A program made the translations under genes and the position numbers. This document shows positions 1 through 7,129 of a stretch of 7,129 bases of DNA, piece after piece. The notes below the pieces were generated by a model. The model was not told the DNA's origin. It saw only the letters and a list, made by a program, of their open reading frames with translations, and did no database searches. The stretch comes from a virus (taxonomy: Duplodnaviria; Heunggongvirae; Uroviricota; Caudoviricetes): the IMG/VR virus record IMGVR_UViG_2671180543_000002, one strand, 5' to 3'. Within the stretch, counting starts at the first letter, position 1; each line of letters starts with the position of its first letter.

Positions 1-11
1 CAGATGGCTGC

Positions 12-257
12 TTAAAAAAAGAACAAATGGTAGTGTCCGCTATTGCCAGTACACCTCAATTCTTTGGCATTTTTTACCTCGTTACGCGCGTCTGTGGCTT
101 TGCCAACGGATACTTCCGCGTGCGCACGAGTGAACCAGTGCGTGGCAACGTCTTCCTCCACAACATGACGGCCTTTAACAAACTCGCGCCGAGAACCGTC
201 GGGAAGCGTGAGCACAAACGGGGTATGTACGTGTATTACTGCATCATTTTTTGCCAT
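12..257 (-). CDS. Hypothetical phage head-module protein (81 aa), first gene downstream of the major capsid gene; function unknown
   Basis: ORF from the track. ATG at 255..257 (minus sense) is preceded by AAGGA about 7 nt upstream. It is co-oriented with and 41 nt downstream of the capsid gene. The stop at 12..14 sits directly on an A7 run (14..20) at the window edge, so the true 3' end is uncertain. Confidence 0.5.
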   Translation of the reverse strand: MAKNDAVIHVHTPFVLTLPDGSRREFVKGRHVVEEDVATHWFTRAHAEVSVGKATDARNEVKNAKELRCTGNSGHYHLFFF

Positions 258-272
258 CGGGTCATCCTTAAT

Positions 273-289
273 GGCCCCGCCAGGGGGCC
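273..289 (-). promoter_or_regulatory. GC-rich stem-loop (6-bp stem GGCCCC/GGGGCC, 5-nt loop) in the 41-nt spacer after the major capsid stop
   Basis: Seen directly: 273..278 GGCCCC pairs with 284..289 GGGGCC. No U-run follows on the mRNA strand, so it is not a canonical intrinsic terminator; an mRNA-stabilising or attenuating hairpin is more likely. Confidence 0.35.
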
Positions 290-298
290 ATGTGGCTG

Positions 299-1240
299 TT
301 AAATGCCATCAACGTACGAAATGGTTTCTTTGTACACTGGCTCGACTGCACCCAGCTTGCCGTAGTAAGTGACGATCTGATACAGACCGCGATACTGCAC
401 CGGCACGCTCTGAAGCGGAACCAGCGGGTAGCGGACGTATTTTTTATCGTTGGTGTACGCAACTATGCGATCCTTATTCCCCACACCACGGCCTTTCAGC
501 CATTTAACCGCGCGGATATTCAGCGGAACACCGTTCTGGTGATAGCTGATGGTGTTGGTCTGAAGGTTCGTCAACAGGGACTGGTTACCTGCAGATGAAA
601 CGATGATGCTGGACAACAGAGCAAACTGCTCAGGCGGGATCAGCAAATCACGCGGAACCACAGAGTAACCAGAAGCGGCCCACGCATCAGACAGCACCTG
701 GTTAATGCTTGCGCGGATTTCGTCCGGTGTTGAGGTTGCCCACGTTTTGGCAGCGTTGTTGACAGGCACGCCGTCCAGGGTAACAAGGCCTTTCAGGTTT
801 AATGCGGAATCGCCAACATATACCTGTTCATCGTTATCCATCTGCCATTTCAGTTGCATACCGTCATACTTCTGCGTATCAATCGGGCGGCCGACCTGCT
901 GAGCAGCCTGCAATTCTATGACCGTCCAGCCAAGTTCCATCCCCCACAGGTTCAGCGGGTTACCGGATTTGCCGATATCCACGTTCACGCCAGCAATAGC
1001 GGTTGAGTCTTTGCCTACCCAGTTTTTTCCATTCGGATTTGCGCCAGTACCCGCAGCGGCGAAGCTGGTATTCGTCCAGCTGGAAATGTCATCTGCGATG
1101 GAGGCGTCTTCACGCAGTTGAATATCGCGGCTCCAGGTGTACCCCACCAGTGGCAGGTTCAGCGTCTGGTCGAGTCTCTCCAGCTCCCCGATGAGAAAGG
1201 CACCAGAGCTGTCAACGGTTGCCTGATCAAAAGTAATCAT
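299..1240 (-). CDS. Putative major capsid protein (313 aa)
   Basis: Position immediately after protease/scaffold and decoration-like genes in a terminase-portal-MuF-protease operon; size typical of HK97-fold capsid proteins; strong SD (AAGGA) 9 nt upstream of the ATG at 1238..1240. Family assignment is by context and recollection, not by a search. Confidence 0.7.
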   Translation of the reverse strand: MITFDQATVDSSGAFLIGELERLDQTLNLPLVGYTWSRDIQLREDASIADDISSWTNTSFAAAGTGANPNGKNWVGKDSTAIAGVNVDIGKSGNPLNLWGMELGWTVIELQAAQQVGRPIDTQKYDGMQLKWQMDNDEQVYVGDSALNLKGLVTLDGVPVNNAAKTWATSTPDEIRASINQVLSDAWAASGYSVVPRDLLIPPEQFALLSSIIVSSAGNQSLLTNLQTNTISYHQNGVPLNIRAVKWLKGRGVGNKDRIVAYTNDKKYVRYPLVPLQSVPVQYRGLYQIVTYYGKLGAVEPVYKETISYVDGI

Positions 1241-1384
1241 TCGTCTGTTCCTTAAATCTTCCAGGAAATTTCTGCATTGCCGTCAGCATCACCGGCACCT
1301 GTGAATTCAGCGTTGGTCAGCACCACGTTTTTGCCACTGACTGACGTGGACATGAATCCACCCAGAGGCACTTTGATGGATTCA

Positions 1385-1741
1385 TCAGTGGAGATCGCCT
1401 TTTTTGATAGTGCTGGCATCAAAATCAGAACCGAGATTAACGGTCACGTAGCCACGCTTCATGGCGTCGCCCGGGAAGTTCTTGCCTGTTCCCACCTGGC
1501 GAACCATGTCCGGCTGCGACGTGGTCGGATAAGGGCGCACGTAGATCCCCTTCACCTTGTCTGCGGTATCACCATCTGCCAGCGGCACGAAAAAACCGTC
1601 ATCATCGTATTTACCAGCCAGGCCATAGGCAGCGAAGGCGTTATCGGATTTAAGGACCACCGGTTCGACGGTTAAGTCCTGCGGGCGAGAGACAGCCCCG
1701 GCAATGCCAACAGGCATCCGGTACAGAAATACATTATTCAT
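1385..1741 (-). CDS. Small head protein, decoration-like (118 aa as called); probably frameshifted, with the coding frame continuing to 1252
   Basis: ORF from the track, 3 nt downstream of the protease/scaffold stop. An A6 run (1400..1405) lies just before the called stop. A different frame stays open and protein-like to a TAA at 1252..1254 that overlaps the capsid SD. Confidence 0.55.
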   Translation of the reverse strand: MNNVFLYRMPVGIAGAVSRPQDLTVEPVVLKSDNAFAAYGLAGKYDDDGFFVPLADGDTADKVKGIYVRPYPTTSQPDMVRQVGTGKNFPGDAMKRGYVTVNLGSDFDASTIKKGDLH

Positions 1742-1744
1742 TTT

Positions 1745-2413
1745 TTACCCTTTACGGTTTGCCCAGAATTCAGCGTTTTGTTTGTTCAGGGAAGCGATAC
1801 TGGTCATGCCCATGTTTAGGCGCTGTGCATCGCCGGTGGTGGCGCGGGTGTTTCGCCCTTTGGCAACCTCAGACACGGCATTAAACGCCATGTCGACCGA
1901 TTGTTTCGGTAATTTGCGGATATCCGCATCACCGACTATCTGGCGAACCAGCGTTTTGTCAGCAGAAGCCAGAACCTCGCGTTTGAACGCGGTCGGTTTC
2001 ATCTTACGGCTCAGATCGATACCCGGAACGATAACTTCGGCACGCCAGGCTGAGTCACCAGTAATCGTGGTTTCCTCTTCATCGTCCTCGCCGTCACCGG
2101 TCGGATTATCGTCAGGCTTATTATCGTTATCGCCCGTGGCATTTCTTTCCAGCTTAGCCAGCAGGGCTTTCAGTAATGTTTTGAGGTCATCATCACTGTC
2201 GCCGGTTGGATCTCCGCCCATCTCTGGTGCTTTGTCCGGTAGTGGTTGCTGCGGGGACAGGTTGATGTTGAGATTAACGCCCTGCGGCAAATCCCCCTCA
2301 TCTCCTGTAACCGATGCGGGAGCCGACTCCACCAGTTCGTTCATGGTGTCGGCATCTCCTGTCTTGATGGCCGCACGCATGCGGTTCCACCAGTTTTTCT
2401 TTTGATTTGCCAT
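1745..2413 (-). CDS. Candidate nested in-frame scaffold protein (222 aa) initiated at the internal ATG 2411..2413 (Met185 of the protease ORF)
   Basis: Internal in-frame ATG preceded on the mRNA strand by GGAGACAGAGACACA (GGAG about 11 nt upstream); it falls exactly where the N-terminal domain ends and the acidic region begins. Inference by analogy to Mu I/Z and lambda C/Nu3. Confidence 0.3.
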   Translation of the reverse strand: MANQKKNWWNRMRAAIKTGDADTMNELVESAPASVTGDEGDLPQGVNLNINLSPQQPLPDKAPEMGGDPTGDSDDDLKTLLKALLAKLERNATGDNDNKPDDNPTGDGEDDEEETTITGDSAWRAEVIVPGIDLSRKMKPTAFKREVLASADKTLVRQIVGDADIRKLPKQSVDMAFNAVSEVAKGRNTRATTGDAQRLNMGMTSIASLNKQNAEFWANRKG

Positions 2414-2965
2414 TGTGTCTCTGTCTCCAATTGCACAACGATTTCCGGCTCTGCCTTTAGGGACAAGAGCCACATGGTTTCCGGTAATATCGACCTGCTC
2501 GGCTTTACCTGGCTCGGTCTGCTCGTACTCCGCGTCATAGCCGCACGACACTTCGCGCAGGCCATCTTCGATAAGCTGAATGGCGCTTTCGTCTTTGACG
2601 ATAAGGTCAGCCAGCATCAAATCAGACTGCTCACCCGTCCCGCGCCGGACATTCTGGAGGTGCCCGACAGCAAGCACTTTCCAGTTCTCGGGATTTACCA
2701 GCCGCACATTCCCGTTTTCATCTTCAGGATGCAGGATCGTGATGCTCATCCCTTCGAATGAGGCAAGCGTGGCCGGATGGAATACCTGCTCAGGAGAACG
2801 CGTGACGACTATTTCAACGAACTTATCGGGTTTCAGTTTTGGCAGGTCATCAGCACCATAGAGCTGCTTACCTGTTCGTCCTATCGGCACGTCTTTGCAC
2901 AGCAACGAGCCGTCAGCCAGGCGGTATCGGGTTTCCCCGAGCCTGGTCTCAAAAAAGTATTTCAT
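1745..2965 (-). CDS. Putative prohead protease / scaffolding protein (406 aa): N-terminal globular domain, acidic low-complexity linker, C-terminal scaffold-like region
   Basis: Position between the MuF-like gene and the capsid gene; strongly acidic D/E/G/T-rich stretch (roughly residues 200..300) typical of scaffold proteins; architecture analogous to Mu I/Z or lambda C/Nu3. Confidence 0.65.
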   Translation of the reverse strand: MKYFFETRLGETRYRLADGSLLCKDVPIGRTGKQLYGADDLPKLKPDKFVEIVVTRSPEQVFHPATLASFEGMSITILHPEDENGNVRLVNPENWKVLAVGHLQNVRRGTGEQSDLMLADLIVKDESAIQLIEDGLREVSCGYDAEYEQTEPGKAEQVDITGNHVALVPKGRAGNRCAIGDRDTMANQKKNWWNRMRAAIKTGDADTMNELVESAPASVTGDEGDLPQGVNLNINLSPQQPLPDKAPEMGGDPTGDSDDDLKTLLKALLAKLERNATGDNDNKPDDNPTGDGEDDEEETTITGDSAWRAEVIVPGIDLSRKMKPTAFKREVLASADKTLVRQIVGDADIRKLPKQSVDMAFNAVSEVAKGRNTRATTGDAQRLNMGMTSIASLNKQNAEFWANRKG

Positions 2966-2968
2966 GGG

Positions 2969-3751
2969 TTATGCTGCCCTTTTCATTGCGAATGGAACGC
3001 GAACAAACACGATCTCTTTATAGCAGCGGCAGTTTGGCAGCTCGCCCGCGTGGCCGGTCATGCCGTCCAAAGTTGGAGGTGAATCCCAGCGGACGAATTT
3101 ACCTTTCATGTGATCGTGGGAATCTCGGACATCGCCATCATCGGCTGTACGCCAAATATAACCATCCGAGCCAATAGCTATCGCTCGGGCCATATCCAGC
3201 GCGCCCGTTGCTCTTCCCAGTTCCGTTCGGGCAATCAGATCGGCCCTAGACTTAGCAACATCGCCGGTAGATGCAATCTCTTTAGCAAACTGCTCCGCCC
3301 GACCACCGGTGACAACAGCCTCTATCGCTTTGTTCTGGATGTCGTACACCCTGTCTGCGGCCTCGAGAGGCAGAGATTTGATGTACTTGACCTGTTCGGC
3401 GATGATGGATTGCATCACCTGGCCCACAGGAGCGCTTTCCACAAGATTGCGGAGCTCGCGACTGATGTTCTTGCTGTGTTGCCGCCAAACTTTCTCGTTC
3501 TGCCGGGTTAGGTCCGCAGTAAAGTTTTCCGCGACCTTTGTCGCCCAGGGGGTGATGATTTCACTGTAACGCTCCAGCGCCGCAATAATTTCCGTGATAC
3601 TGTCATTTGAACCATCGTAGCGACCATTTACGATGTCTCCGACCGCCCTCGCTATCCTGCGTAGGCTGGTTCGATACCGGATTTCCGCCTGACGGCTCCT
3701 GCGGTTCGTCATCAGGTTCGCCGATGCCGGGCGGCGCTTCATCTTCGGCAT
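2969..3751 (-). CDS. Phage head morphogenesis protein, Mu F / SPP1 gp7-like (260 aa)
   Basis: C-terminal region contains ...WRTADDGDVRDSHDHMKGKF...GELPNCRCYKE..., matching my recollection of the conserved VR..H and CRC signature of Mu F-like domains; located between portal and protease. GAGGA SD 8 nt upstream of the ATG at 3749..3751. The start overlaps the portal 3' end by 149 nt. Confidence 0.8.
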   Translation of the reverse strand: MPKMKRRPASANLMTNRRSRQAEIRYRTSLRRIARAVGDIVNGRYDGSNDSITEIIAALERYSEIITPWATKVAENFTADLTRQNEKVWRQHSKNISRELRNLVESAPVGQVMQSIIAEQVKYIKSLPLEAADRVYDIQNKAIEAVVTGGRAEQFAKEIASTGDVAKSRADLIARTELGRATGALDMARAIAIGSDGYIWRTADDGDVRDSHDHMKGKFVRWDSPPTLDGMTGHAGELPNCRCYKEIVFVRVPFAMKRAA

Positions 3752-5069
3752 TCTCGATGTCCTCGTTGGTAATGGATGCCCCTATGCCGGTTACGTCAGA
3801 ATTTTCTCGCAAATCAGTCATAGCGGCTTTCAGTGTCATCAGACCATCACCCAGCGCCGTACTGATTGCGTTGGTGGTGTTTAACGCCACCGTTGAGCGA
3901 TCGACATCAGACATTTGCCAGAGCGGGTTAAACTCAAACGTGAAATCGTCCGGCAGCGGCTTGCCAAGTTCCGAACGATGCATGATGTCCAGTATCCGCC
4001 GCACCGGAAGACGTAAACGCCTCTCCTGCAACGAACTGATGCGATCGTAATAGTTGGCAAGGTCTGCATCACCGGTAGAAAATCCTTTCGGGGACTGTCC
4101 GAACAACCGCACCAGTGGGATACCAACAGCGCCACTAATCTGTTCTGCAAACTGCGAAAGGATGTCATCCAGACCACTGAAGCTGTACTGATGGGTTTCA
4201 AACTTATCCCGCGAGTCCATGAGCGTCATGCCTTCATTACTCTGGAACTGTCGAATCAGGTCGATATTCTTCAGCAACGCTTCATACGCAGGACCACCAA
4301 GTGCGATAAGCTCGCGTAGCTTCTCCACGCTGTAGGTACGCAAATGCGCCTTGTAGACCAGCTGCGCCGCGCCGACAGTAGCGCTGTCGAACGCGGTAAG
4401 ACGATCCCAGATACGCTCTACAACCGACATTCCCCATTCGTTCTCGGTCATCTTCTGCTGAAATGGCAACGTGACGCCATCAAAGCGAATCAGGCGACTG
4501 TGATGAATGCGCCAGGCAGGAATTCCCGTTGCTGTGGTCACCACATCGTAAAACTCAGGTTTACCCAGGTCCGGCCCCATATCTTTAATGCGGCGGGTCA
4601 GTGCCGGGTCGACCATCCAGCGGTCGAGCGGGAGAATCCCCTTAAACTTGCCCTTACCGATGGTTTCGGGTCGCAGCGGGGTCATTGGTGCCTGCCCCTC
4701 AATCATGATGAAACCCACCGCGCCGCCGTAGAGGCGCGACCATTTCAGCACGTCATTCAGCGCATCCCAGATTTGCAACTCATCCAGTTGTGATTCGAGA
4801 ATGCCACGATCTTTTGCATCAATTTCCGAAGTGATGCGAATGCCTTTGCGGGTCATATCATCCGGGATAGCATCGACTGCTTCGCCGATGATCCAGGATG
4901 AACGATAGGACCATTCCACCAGCATGCGGTTACGACTGGTGAAATTAGCCCGGTAGGTGGATGCTGAGTGCTGGTTAGGTGTCTGCATCCCTACTCGGGC
5001 AATAAAATTCTCATAACCATCAGCTGTGGCCTGCACAGTTCGCCGCAGGGCTTGTTTGTTTCGTGCCAT
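3603..5069 (-). CDS. Putative phage portal protein (488 aa) with an acidic, proline-rich C-terminal tail
   Basis: Size and position directly downstream of, and translationally coupled to, the terminase large subunit (ATGA overlap at 5067..5071) and upstream of the MuF-like gene. Family inferred from context. Confidence 0.7.
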   Translation of the reverse strand: MARNKQALRRTVQATADGYENFIARVGMQTPNQHSASTYRANFTSRNRMLVEWSYRSSWIIGEAVDAIPDDMTRKGIRITSEIDAKDRGILESQLDELQIWDALNDVLKWSRLYGGAVGFIMIEGQAPMTPLRPETIGKGKFKGILPLDRWMVDPALTRRIKDMGPDLGKPEFYDVVTTATGIPAWRIHHSRLIRFDGVTLPFQQKMTENEWGMSVVERIWDRLTAFDSATVGAAQLVYKAHLRTYSVEKLRELIALGGPAYEALLKNIDLIRQFQSNEGMTLMDSRDKFETHQYSFSGLDDILSQFAEQISGAVGIPLVRLFGQSPKGFSTGDADLANYYDRISSLQERRLRLPVRRILDIMHRSELGKPLPDDFTFEFNPLWQMSDVDRSTVALNTTNAISTALGDGLMTLKAAMTDLRENSDVTGIGASITNEDIENAEDEAPPGIGEPDDEPQEPSGGNPVSNQPTQDSEGGRRHRKWSLRWFK

Positions 5070-5801
5070 CAGGCCTGTCTCCCCAGCTGTTCCCAGATAT
5101 CCAGCGATGTATCGATTGGCGCGAAGGCCATAATGAATGCATCAGCAACGTTTGGTGACGGTATCTCGCGTTTTGCGAGGTCTTTTTTACTTTCGACCAT
5201 CACACGTCCGTTACGGTCGAAATCACGATGAGGTGTTGTCAGTTCCAGTTTCAGCTTTTCAAGCAACGGACAACGAGAATCTATGCTGATCAGCTCATCC
5301 ACAGGATACTGTTCTCCGTTGTTAATGGCGTTAAACGTATTTCTGAAACGGTCAGCCACCATGCCTGAGCCTTAAGATTTGCGAAAAAGTCTTTGTTGGG
5401 GATGCCGTTGTACTCGTCATCTGGCTCATGCACACCAGCACCGGCGTTAAACCTCTGGTAATTCACACGTCGCGCGTATGCGTTCTCGCTCTTCCGGTCA
5501 GCGTTAATTTCAGAGAATTTAGCACCGGCAGACGCACCAACACCGATAGAGTCGTAAACAATATCTGCTTCACGCTCCAGCGCCGCCTGATAAGTACGCT
5601 GGCAGCTCTTCAGTAATTCATCTTCTTTGGCCTTCCATTCGTCGGCCCAGAAAACAACGGATCCGTGACGGTAAACGTTAGCGCACTTATCTGTACCACT
5701 GTCAGCCACGTCAAAGCCAATACGCTTTCTTCCACTGGGTTCGAAATTTAACGTTTTGTGCGCATCCACTGCGGCTTCTATCCAAGACAGTTTGATGATT
5801 G
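5069..5801 (-). pseudogene. Terminase large subunit, 3' half only (nuclease domain), with an internal frameshift near 5350..5362 and 5' truncation at 5802 by an IS2 end
   Basis: ORF 5290..5829 contains ...RIGFDVADSGTDKCANV..., resembling the RNase H-like nuclease motif of terminase large subunits. ORF 5069..5362, in another frame, looks like the terminase C-terminal end (...ESKKDLAKR..SPNVADAFIMAF). The first 9 codons of the 5290..5829 ORF (MSGNIGANP) are read out of the IS2 terminal repeat. The ATPase half is absent. Confidence 0.8.
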
Positions 5802-5860
5802 CTGGATTTGCCCCTATATTTCCAGACATCTGTTATCACTTAACCCATTACAAGCCCGCT
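5802..5860 (+). mobile_element. Terminal 59 bp of an IS2-like (IS3 family) element, outermost end at 5802, running into the N gap
   Basis: TGGATTTGCCCCTATATTTCCAGACATCTGTTATCACTTAACCCATTACAAGCCCGCT is identical to 6942..7000 and matches my memory of the IS2 right terminal inverted repeat. Confidence 0.75.
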
Positions 5861-5870
5861 NNNNNNNNNN
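5861..5870. other. Run of 10 N: assembly/scaffold gap of unknown true length
   Basis: Literal n characters in the sequence. Confidence 0.99.
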
Positions 5871-6941
5871 AACACCAAAGGCGATGCCATGATTGGCGTC
5901 AAGCAGCCTTTACCAAAAGCAGTTTTAAGAACTCAGCATGACAAAAATAAAGAAGCAATAAGTATCCTGGATTTTGGTGTTATTGATGATGGTGTGACAG
6001 ATAATTACCAGGCAATACAAAATGCTATAGATGCCGTTGCTTCACTACCCTCCGGCGGGGAGCTGTTTATCCCTGCGAGCAACCAAGCGGTGGGGTATAT
6101 TGTTGGATCCACTTTGCTTATTCCTGGCGGTGTTAACATCAGAGGAGTTGGTAAGGCATCGCAACTCCGAGCAAAAAGCGGACTTACAGGATCTGTGTTA
6201 AGGCTGTCTTATGATTCAGACACTATCGGCCGTTATCTGAGAAATATACGAGTAACTGGTAATAACACCTGCAATGGTATTGACACAAACATTACAGCAG
6301 AAGACTCTGTCATCAGACAGGTTTATGGCTGGGTATTTGATAATGTAATGGTGAATGAAGTTGAAACCGCATTATTTAATGCAAGGGCTCTGGCACTCAA
6401 AATTTATAGCATGTCAGGCTGGAACCTGTAGAGTCGGTCTTCACTTTTTAGGCCAGTGCGTAAGTGTTAGTGTCAGCTCCTGCCATTTCAGCAGAGGAAA
6501 TTATTCTGCTGATGAAAGCTTTGGCATCAGGATTCAGCCTCAAACGTATGCGTGGTCGTCAGAGGCAGTTAGGTCAGAAGCAATAATTTTAGACAGTGAG
6601 ACCATGTGCATTGGTTTTAAAAATGCCGTCTATGTTCATGATTGCCTTGATTTGCATATGGAACAACTGGATTTAGATTATTGCGGCTCAACAGGCGTGG
6701 TTATAGAGAATGTAAACGGAGGATTTTCTTTCTCAAACTCATGGATAGCAGCAGATGCCGATGGCACTGAACAATTTACGGGGATATATTTTAGAACGCC
6801 GGCCTCAACGCAGTCACATAAAATTGTCAGTGGTGTTCATATCAACACTGCAAACAAAAACACGGCTGCAAACAATCAAAGTATAGCGATAGAACAGTCG
6901 GCGATCTTCGTCTTTGTAAGTGGTTGTACGTTAACTGGTGA
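5871..6941 (+). pseudogene. Right-handed beta-helix, pectate-lyase-like protein (possible glycan depolymerase or tailspike-type enzyme); frameshifted between 6355 and 6431 and 3'-truncated by the IS2 end at 6942; 5' end may lie in the gap
   Basis: N-terminal ...ISILDFGVIDDGVTDNYQAIQNAIDAVASLPSGGELFIPAS... resembles the signature start of pectate-lyase-3-type beta-helix domains. The reading frame is open from 5871 (ATG at 5889). Two overlapping ORFs in different frames (5889..6431 and 6355..). Everything after 6941 in the second ORF is IS2 sequence. Low GC compared with the phage genes. Confidence 0.55.
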
Positions 6942-7129
6942 TGGATTTGCCCCTATATTTCCAGACATCTGTTATCACTTAACCCATTACAAGCCCGCTG
7001 CCGCAGATATTCCCGTGGCGAGCGATAACCCAGCGCACTATGCGGATGCCATTCGTTATAATGCTCGACCGCCTCTGCAAGGTTCTTTGCTGCCGTTAAC
7101 CCGTCTGGTTTGGGCATGATACTGATGTA
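6942..7129 (-). mobile_element. IS2-like element, right end (partial; the element continues past the window end), with its terminal inverted repeat starting at 6942
   Basis: Same terminal sequence as at 5802..5860, here continuing into the transposase coding sequence. Confidence 0.8.
6953..7129 (-). CDS. insD: IS2 / IS3-family transposase OrfB, 3' end only (5' part outside the window)
   Basis: Minus-strand translation ...[54 protein letters not shown], stop at 6953..6955; the HYNE..HSALGY..P motif is typical of IS3-family integrase C-termini. Confidence 0.7.

Follow-up and report, generated by a model that had tools for sequence, protein, structure and literature searches.

Shigella chromosomes carry 229–348 IS insertions, among which IS2 and IS600 are expanded, and IS1203 as well in S. 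flexneri (PMC7373316). The DNA analyzed in this study, a stretch of 7,129 nt that is referred to as the window at its full length, contains the ends of two IS2 copies on either side of a run of Ns, and was compared with four described situations. The first is IS2 of S. flexneri 2457T (AE014073.1) and other finished genomes, with which the window copies share the terminal sequence and flanks that are 100% and 99.9% identical. In contrast to those complete elements, however, the window holds only the outer 58 and 188 nt of IS2, and carries a C at position 7069 unlike the 22 copies examined.

The second is the tailspike of phage Sf6 (Lederbergvirus Sf6), the beta-helix domain of which is matched by a protein encoded in the window. 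Unlike gene 14 of Sf6, however, the window fragment sits between two IS elements inside cusB, and not in an Sf6 prophage. The third is the composite transposon, which the window resembles in having two direct IS2 ends around a 1.07-kb passenger, while it differs from one in that the left IS2 comes from another locus and the real flanks of the passenger are IS2 and a presumably IS629/IS1203-like element. The fourth is the repeat-induced mis-scaffolding of IS-rich short-read assemblies, with which the window shares contig ends in a multicopy IS, a short fixed run of Ns and an origin of the pieces in distant loci; compared with the usual misjoin of this kind, the only oddity is that the left side of the second contig carries no repeat overhang. 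The results presented below lead us to conclude that the junction is very probably a scaffolding artefact, which joins two known IS2 insertion sites and pieces from distant loci.

Layout of the window and the repeated IS2 ends

The window consists of 5860 nt (piece A), ten Ns and 1259 nt (piece B). Piece A (1-5860) is a prophage head module running from an IS600 end to an IS2 end, and piece B (5871-7129) is an Sf6 tailspike fragment followed by an IS2 right end. The scaffold gap between them (5861..5870), which contains the only Ns of the window, is flanked on the left by position 58 of IS2, and on the right by nt 394 of Sf6 gene 14.

Direct string comparison showed that 5803-5860 and 6942-6999 are an exact direct repeat of 58 nt (TGGATTTGCCCC...AAGCCCGCT), and a repeat finder extended the pair to 5800-5860 and 6939-6999 with a sole mismatch, C at 5802 vs. 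A at 6941. Given that an exact 58-nt match is found within 7.1 kb, while the second-longest direct repeat of the window has only 30 nt at 70% identity, the pair is not due to chance. The two IS2 copies share one orientation, each starting at the outer tip of the right inverted repeat and proceeding into the element. These results bear out the first-pass annotation in that two IS2 right ends in the same orientation lie around a 10-N gap, that the first copy directly meets the N run (5803-5860 abuts 5861..5870), and that the gap is followed by a low-GC segment, as 42–44% GC was found in 5871-6941 vs. 51–56% in the head operon (1-5000). Its coordinates hold only in part. The repeat, which had been given as 5802..5860 and 6942..7000, is genuine over 58 nt, but the two 59-mers are shifted against each other by one base, and the IS end starts at T5803. 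Similarly, of the bases reported just outside the two IS ends, GGTGA is located at 6937..6941 as claimed, whereas ATTGC is present but occupies 5798..5802 rather than 5797..5801.

To relate the window to finished genomes, 20 closed S. flexneri loci were used, ten for each piece, with L003-L012 as the loci of piece A and L013-L022 as those of piece B. The first IS2 copy (5803..5860, - strand in the transposase sense) is the outer 58 nt of the right end (IRR side) and constitutes the right repeat overhang of contig A. The second copy (6942..7129, - strand) is the outer 188 nt of the same end, contains the C-terminal codons of the transposase and reaches the end of the window. The terminal inverted repeat of the IS2 right end (TGGATTTGCCCC...) is present in both of them. 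Both stretches correspond in E. coli RefSeq to sequence annotated as 'IS3-like element IS2 family transposase', and the RefSeq entry for the E. coli IS2 transposase homologue carries 'programmed frameshift'. In the closed loci, 5803-5860 extends into a complete 1331-bp IS2 (L003-L012), and so does 6942-7129 (11054-12384 in L013-L022), that is, both copies have left and right ends in the homologous loci, while the window itself contains only 58 + 188 nt.

The 188-nt right end is identical among all 22 IS2 copies examined in the fetched closed loci. At position 7069 of the window, which is position 128 from the right tip of IS2, a C is found where 22/22 right ends have an A; this C could be a strain-specific IS2 variant, a base of a minority copy, or an error near the contig end. 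Assignment of the IS2 tail of piece B to one particular copy was ruled out, as the 22 copies have the same 188 nt, and the base of the window at 7069 is found in none of them.

The head module and the interrupted terminase gene

Piece A starts with an IS600 end (1..58, + strand), which comprises the end of a transposase ORF and the terminal inverted repeat (...CCAGTACACCTCA) and forms the left repeat overhang of contig A. The 25-mers taken from 1-40 had 15–20 occurrences across the 20 S. flexneri loci vs. 10 for unique sequence, and the count was 10 from position 41. The full element at this site in L003 is designated 'IS3-like element IS600 family transposase' in E. coli RefSeq, with 99.6% identity.

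The remainder of piece A (59..5802, - strand) is a head-morphogenesis module of a relic prophage, as recognized from its ORFs, Pfam families and E. coli RefSeq names. All of its genes lie on the - strand, and they encode the major capsid protein (PF09950, 299-1240), a cement protein (1385-1741), a Pa193_gp24/DUF2213 protein (1745-2965), a Mu-F-like head morphogenesis protein (about 2969-3712), the portal protein (PF06381, 3603-5069), a small ORF (5069-5302) and the 3′ (C-terminal) part of a PBSX-type large terminase (5290-5802). The closed genomes have identical copies of these genes, in which the Pfam families PF09950, PF22758, PF09979, PF04233 and PF06381 were found. L003, L004, and L006 match piece A from end to end at 100% identity, and the remaining A loci match it at 99.9% or more.

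An ORF of 179 aa (5290-5829) spans the junction between terminase and IS2, and therefore provides a junction-specific probe. It was found on at least 24 contigs, many of which are chromosomes of 4.46–4.70 Mb. The ATTGC at 5798..5802 is one copy of a 5-bp target-site duplication from the IS2 insertion into the terminase gene; its reverse complement, GCAAT, borders both ends of the 1331-bp IS2 in 9/10 closed A loci. The N-terminal part of the terminase (PF04466) is located on the far side of IS2 in closed genomes, and when IS2 and one duplication copy were excised in silico, the terminase reading frame was open again over 430 codons. This insertion is a simple transposition with a 5-bp target duplication.

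Among E. coli complete genomes, no IS2 was found at this terminase site, though the terminase flank is common there. E. coli FDAARGOS_943 gave the only apparent full-length match, but was rejected as the source of the junction because its IS2 lies 233 bp further into the terminase. This element (7237-8556 of L001, NZ_CP065615.1) is an independent terminase IS2 in the same orientation as the one at the S. flexneri site, and the same terminase gene has thus been struck twice by IS2 in different lineages.

Some variation was observed among the closed A loci. In L010 (LR213452.1), the far flank of the terminase IS2 (8687-8696) is TAATGCTGAG and not ...GCAAT, and the neighbors beyond the element are Phage_ASH/pRha genes in place of the N-terminal part of the terminase; this far flank suggests a strain-specific recombination between IS2 copies. 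In L012 (CP026792.1), an additional IS3-family element (13645-14908) breaks the Pa193_gp24/DUF2213 head gene at about 2186-2188 of the window, and the alignment pieces overlap by 3 nt there, consistent with a 3-bp target duplication. The terminase IS2 of L004 (CP058589.1, 8699-10027) has 1329 bp instead of 1331 bp, and its transposase is called as one 408-aa ORF; an indel error of long-read assembly is the probable cause of the shorter length, or else two bp have really been deleted. Past the IS600 that bounds the head module in L003, Mu-type transposase genes (PF02316, PF02914, and PF09299) are present at 17033-19559, and the relic prophage may be Mu-like, or a Mu-like remnant may abut it.

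The Sf6 tailspike relic and its location in cusB

The sequence at 5871..6941 (+ strand) is an internal fragment of gene 14, the tailspike (endorhamnosidase) gene of phage Sf6, covering nt 394-1463 of 1872. It is 99.5% identical at the nucleotide level to 14112-15181 of Sf6 (AF547987.1), from which it is distinguished by four substitutions and by a frame-shifting insertion of 1 nt (A at 6371). With nt 1-393 and 1464-1872 absent, the fragment has neither the N-terminal head-binding domain nor the C-terminal quarter. A 180-aa ORF within it matches the solved Sf6 tailspike structures 2vbe, 2vbk, and 7sg7 (E=1e-102). Because the +1 insertion at 6371 shifts the frame, the fragment is a pseudogene relic, and not a functional Sf6-type gene. 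The first-pass annotation had named a 'beta-helix gene' here; in place of a gene, there is an internal pseudogene fragment of the Sf6 tailspike.

Piece B shows 99.92% identity to ten closed loci (L013-L022). Many closed chromosomes contain the 180-aa tailspike ORF, among them that of S. flexneri 2a 2457T (AE014073.1; PMC11296952). The search for the tailspike fragment in E. coli complete genomes returned only a single match, to an intact tailspike of an E. coli prophage.

In all ten closed loci, the left neighbor of the tailspike fragment is a 1306-bp IS3-family element ending in ...GGGGCGGTTCA, and GGAT (4 nt) separates the end of this element from window position 5871. From its terminal repeat, we take the element to be IS629/IS1203-like. 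On the other side of the fragment, the IS2 in L013-L022 is flanked by GGTGA (11049-11053) and CCTGC (12385-12389), without a target duplication. Since these two flanks differ and no 5-bp duplication is found, a past rearrangement at this IS2 is implied, namely, a deletion or a recombination associated with IS2, in which the tailspike gene lost its 3′ part.

Comparison with E. coli K-12 showed that a 4448-bp block is inserted at one point of cusB. In L022 (AE014073.1), this mosaic extends over 8138-12585, and is composed of a 535-bp integrase end, the IS629/IS1203-like element, the tailspike fragment, IS2, and 201 bp of prophage. The structure is the same in 10/10 closed loci, and for this reason cusB, which encodes a copper/silver efflux adaptor, seems to be inactivated throughout the lineage. 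Matches to prophages adjoining sbcB in other E. coli were obtained with both the integrase end and the 201-bp piece. Sf6 was also considered as the origin of the integrase fragment and rejected, as only gene 14 of the mosaic matches Sf6. The two IS2 copies of the window, previously described as occupying two distinct insertion sites, indeed do so: the terminase copy is bordered by the duplicated GCAAT/ATTGC, and the tailspike copy, in the cusB mosaic, by GGTGA and CCTGC.

Distance between the two pieces in closed chromosomes

The distance between A and B was measured from window 5860 to window 5871, with locus coordinates converted to record coordinates, in the five closed chromosomes that were found by both the A-junction and the B ORF look-ups. 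The two pieces were 211.4 kb apart in CP058589.1 and in CP026788.1, 180.7 kb apart in LR213452.1, and 180.6 kb apart in CP055132.1, on the same strand in each case, while they were 48.4 kb apart on opposite strands in LR213455.1. In 4/4 same-strand chromosomes, B lies upstream of A and not downstream. The scaffold order (B after A) occurs in 0/5 closed chromosomes carrying both pieces. Further, a pattern representing the join, that is, IS2 nt 42-58 followed by 0-30 of any bases and the tailspike start, had no match in the genome or metagenome contig collections. The caution that the position of 5871..6941 beside the head operon is not trustworthy is thus fully warranted, given that both pieces are ~100% identical in the same genomes, yet located 48–211 kb apart.

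Assembly signature and origin of the join

The contigs of the window end in multicopy repeats, which are IS600 at 1-58, and IS2 at 5803-5860 and 6942-7129. The repeat overhang of contig A is exactly 58 nt long on either side (IS600 1-58, IS2 5803-5860). These equal overhangs suggest that contig A is a contig of a k-mer (de Bruijn) graph broken at repeats, from an assembly at k=59 (k-1 = 58). In public assemblies, contigs of 5-10 kb account for most occurrences of the A-junction ORF (1123/1402 blocks), and contigs of <2 kb for most of those of the B ORF (796/969 blocks), and these typical contig classes fit the sizes of the repeat-bounded pieces in the window. Unlike contig A, contig B has no repeat overhang on its left side, where, in closed genomes, an IS ends four nt away from 5871; trimming at the gap may account for the missing overhang. 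The window is probably a whole small scaffold of two repeat-bounded contigs, from a short-read draft assembly of Shigella flexneri.

Contig A is the head module of a degraded prophage, with IS600 on one side and the terminase IS2 on the other, and contig B is a defunct internal piece of a tailspike gene of the Sf6 type with a second, independent IS2. The true place of contig B is very probably the 4.4-kb IS-riddled prophage relic within cusB, tens to hundreds of kb from A. The way in which the false join may have arisen can be pictured as follows. IS2 repeats of ~1.3 kb would have been left unresolved by the assembler, and the first 188 nt of IS2 would have been attached to contig B alone. Read pairs with their anchor in the terminase flank of A and their mates in IS2 may then have been mapped to the IS2 tail of B, which could attract such pairs because the 188 nt are alike in all 22 IS2 copies. 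Given a link of this kind, with like-oriented IS2 ends and a distance nominally below zero, the scaffolder would have set B after A with the smallest gap. Ten Ns is a minimum gap used by scaffolders, and the route from mate pairs to a false join is likewise familiar from assemblers in general. The gap conceals more than IS2, as the real left neighbor of the fragment is another IS, presumably IS629/IS1203-like.

The first-pass annotation had offered either a scaffolding artefact or an IS-mediated rearrangement. The 58-nt overhangs, the shared IS2 tail and the unmatched join all argue for the artefact, and the rearrangement is less favored.

Alternative explanations

The adjacency could instead be real in this strain, by IS2-mediated recombination or by movement of an IS2-tailspike′-IS2 unit, with the gap hiding the rest of the first IS2; we regard this as improbable. 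Two direct IS2 around about 1.07 kb resemble a composite transposon, yet the left neighbor of the fragment in 10/10 closed loci is the IS629/IS1203-like element, with no IS2 left end. The tailspike-side IS2 is without target duplication, so it was involved in a past rearrangement, but a simple IS2 × IS2 recombination would link the terminase to cusB, and not to the 5′ side of the tailspike fragment. That the terminase IS2 is a site of rearrangements is indicated by the different far flank in L010, and S. flexneri strains vary by IS-mediated rearrangement, LR213455.1 having A and B on opposite strands and 48 kb apart. Nevertheless, the source of the window is a very close relative of the finished genomes (A 100%, B 99.9% identity), the two pieces are 48–211 kb apart in 5/5 genomes with both of them, and the join pattern was unmatched in the genome and metagenome collections.

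A strain-specific IS2-passenger-IS2 composite unit, generated by an IS2-driven move of the Sf6 tailspike relic together with its IS2, is very improbable; if it were true, IS2 would still be shuffling prophage debris in S. flexneri. As a composite transposon, the IS2-passenger-IS2 arrangement was rejected, because the true left neighbor is another IS and no target duplication is shared. Two copies of the same IS around the passenger on one molecule were not found, as the IS2 of 5803-5860 is 48–211 kb away, nor was a common outer target duplication, as ATTGC is on the left (5798-5802) and CCTGC on the right (in closed genomes). It is hardly credible at all that the sequence is contiguous and the ten Ns mask or replace ten real bases, for although some collections mask short stretches as N and the run is short, this was rejected on the non-collinear flanks, IS2 beyond nt 58 reading GCCGCAGATATTCCCG... 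(7000 onward) and 5871 onward being Sf6 gene 14 from nt 394, and it requires a 68-nt IS2 stub fused to mid-tailspike, which was seen in 0/20 closed loci and in neither collection scanned.

Implications for S. flexneri genomes

With a scaffolding artefact as the very probable origin of the junction, the value of the finding is one of quality control only: IS-rich genomes yield misleading scaffolds, and a look-up of junction ORFs in closed genomes settles such cases. The order IS2-gap-tailspike-IS2 is without biological meaning, and the succession of head operon, IS2, tailspike, and IS2 should be read neither as a module of a prophage nor as a composite transposon nor as a rearrangement. Finished S. 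flexneri genomes, including that of 2457T, the reference genome of which dates from 2003, are already known to have both IS2 insertions, together with the tailspike relic from Sf6 and the interruption of cusB, as standing features. The IS2 insertions themselves are real, old and fixed in S. flexneri genomes.
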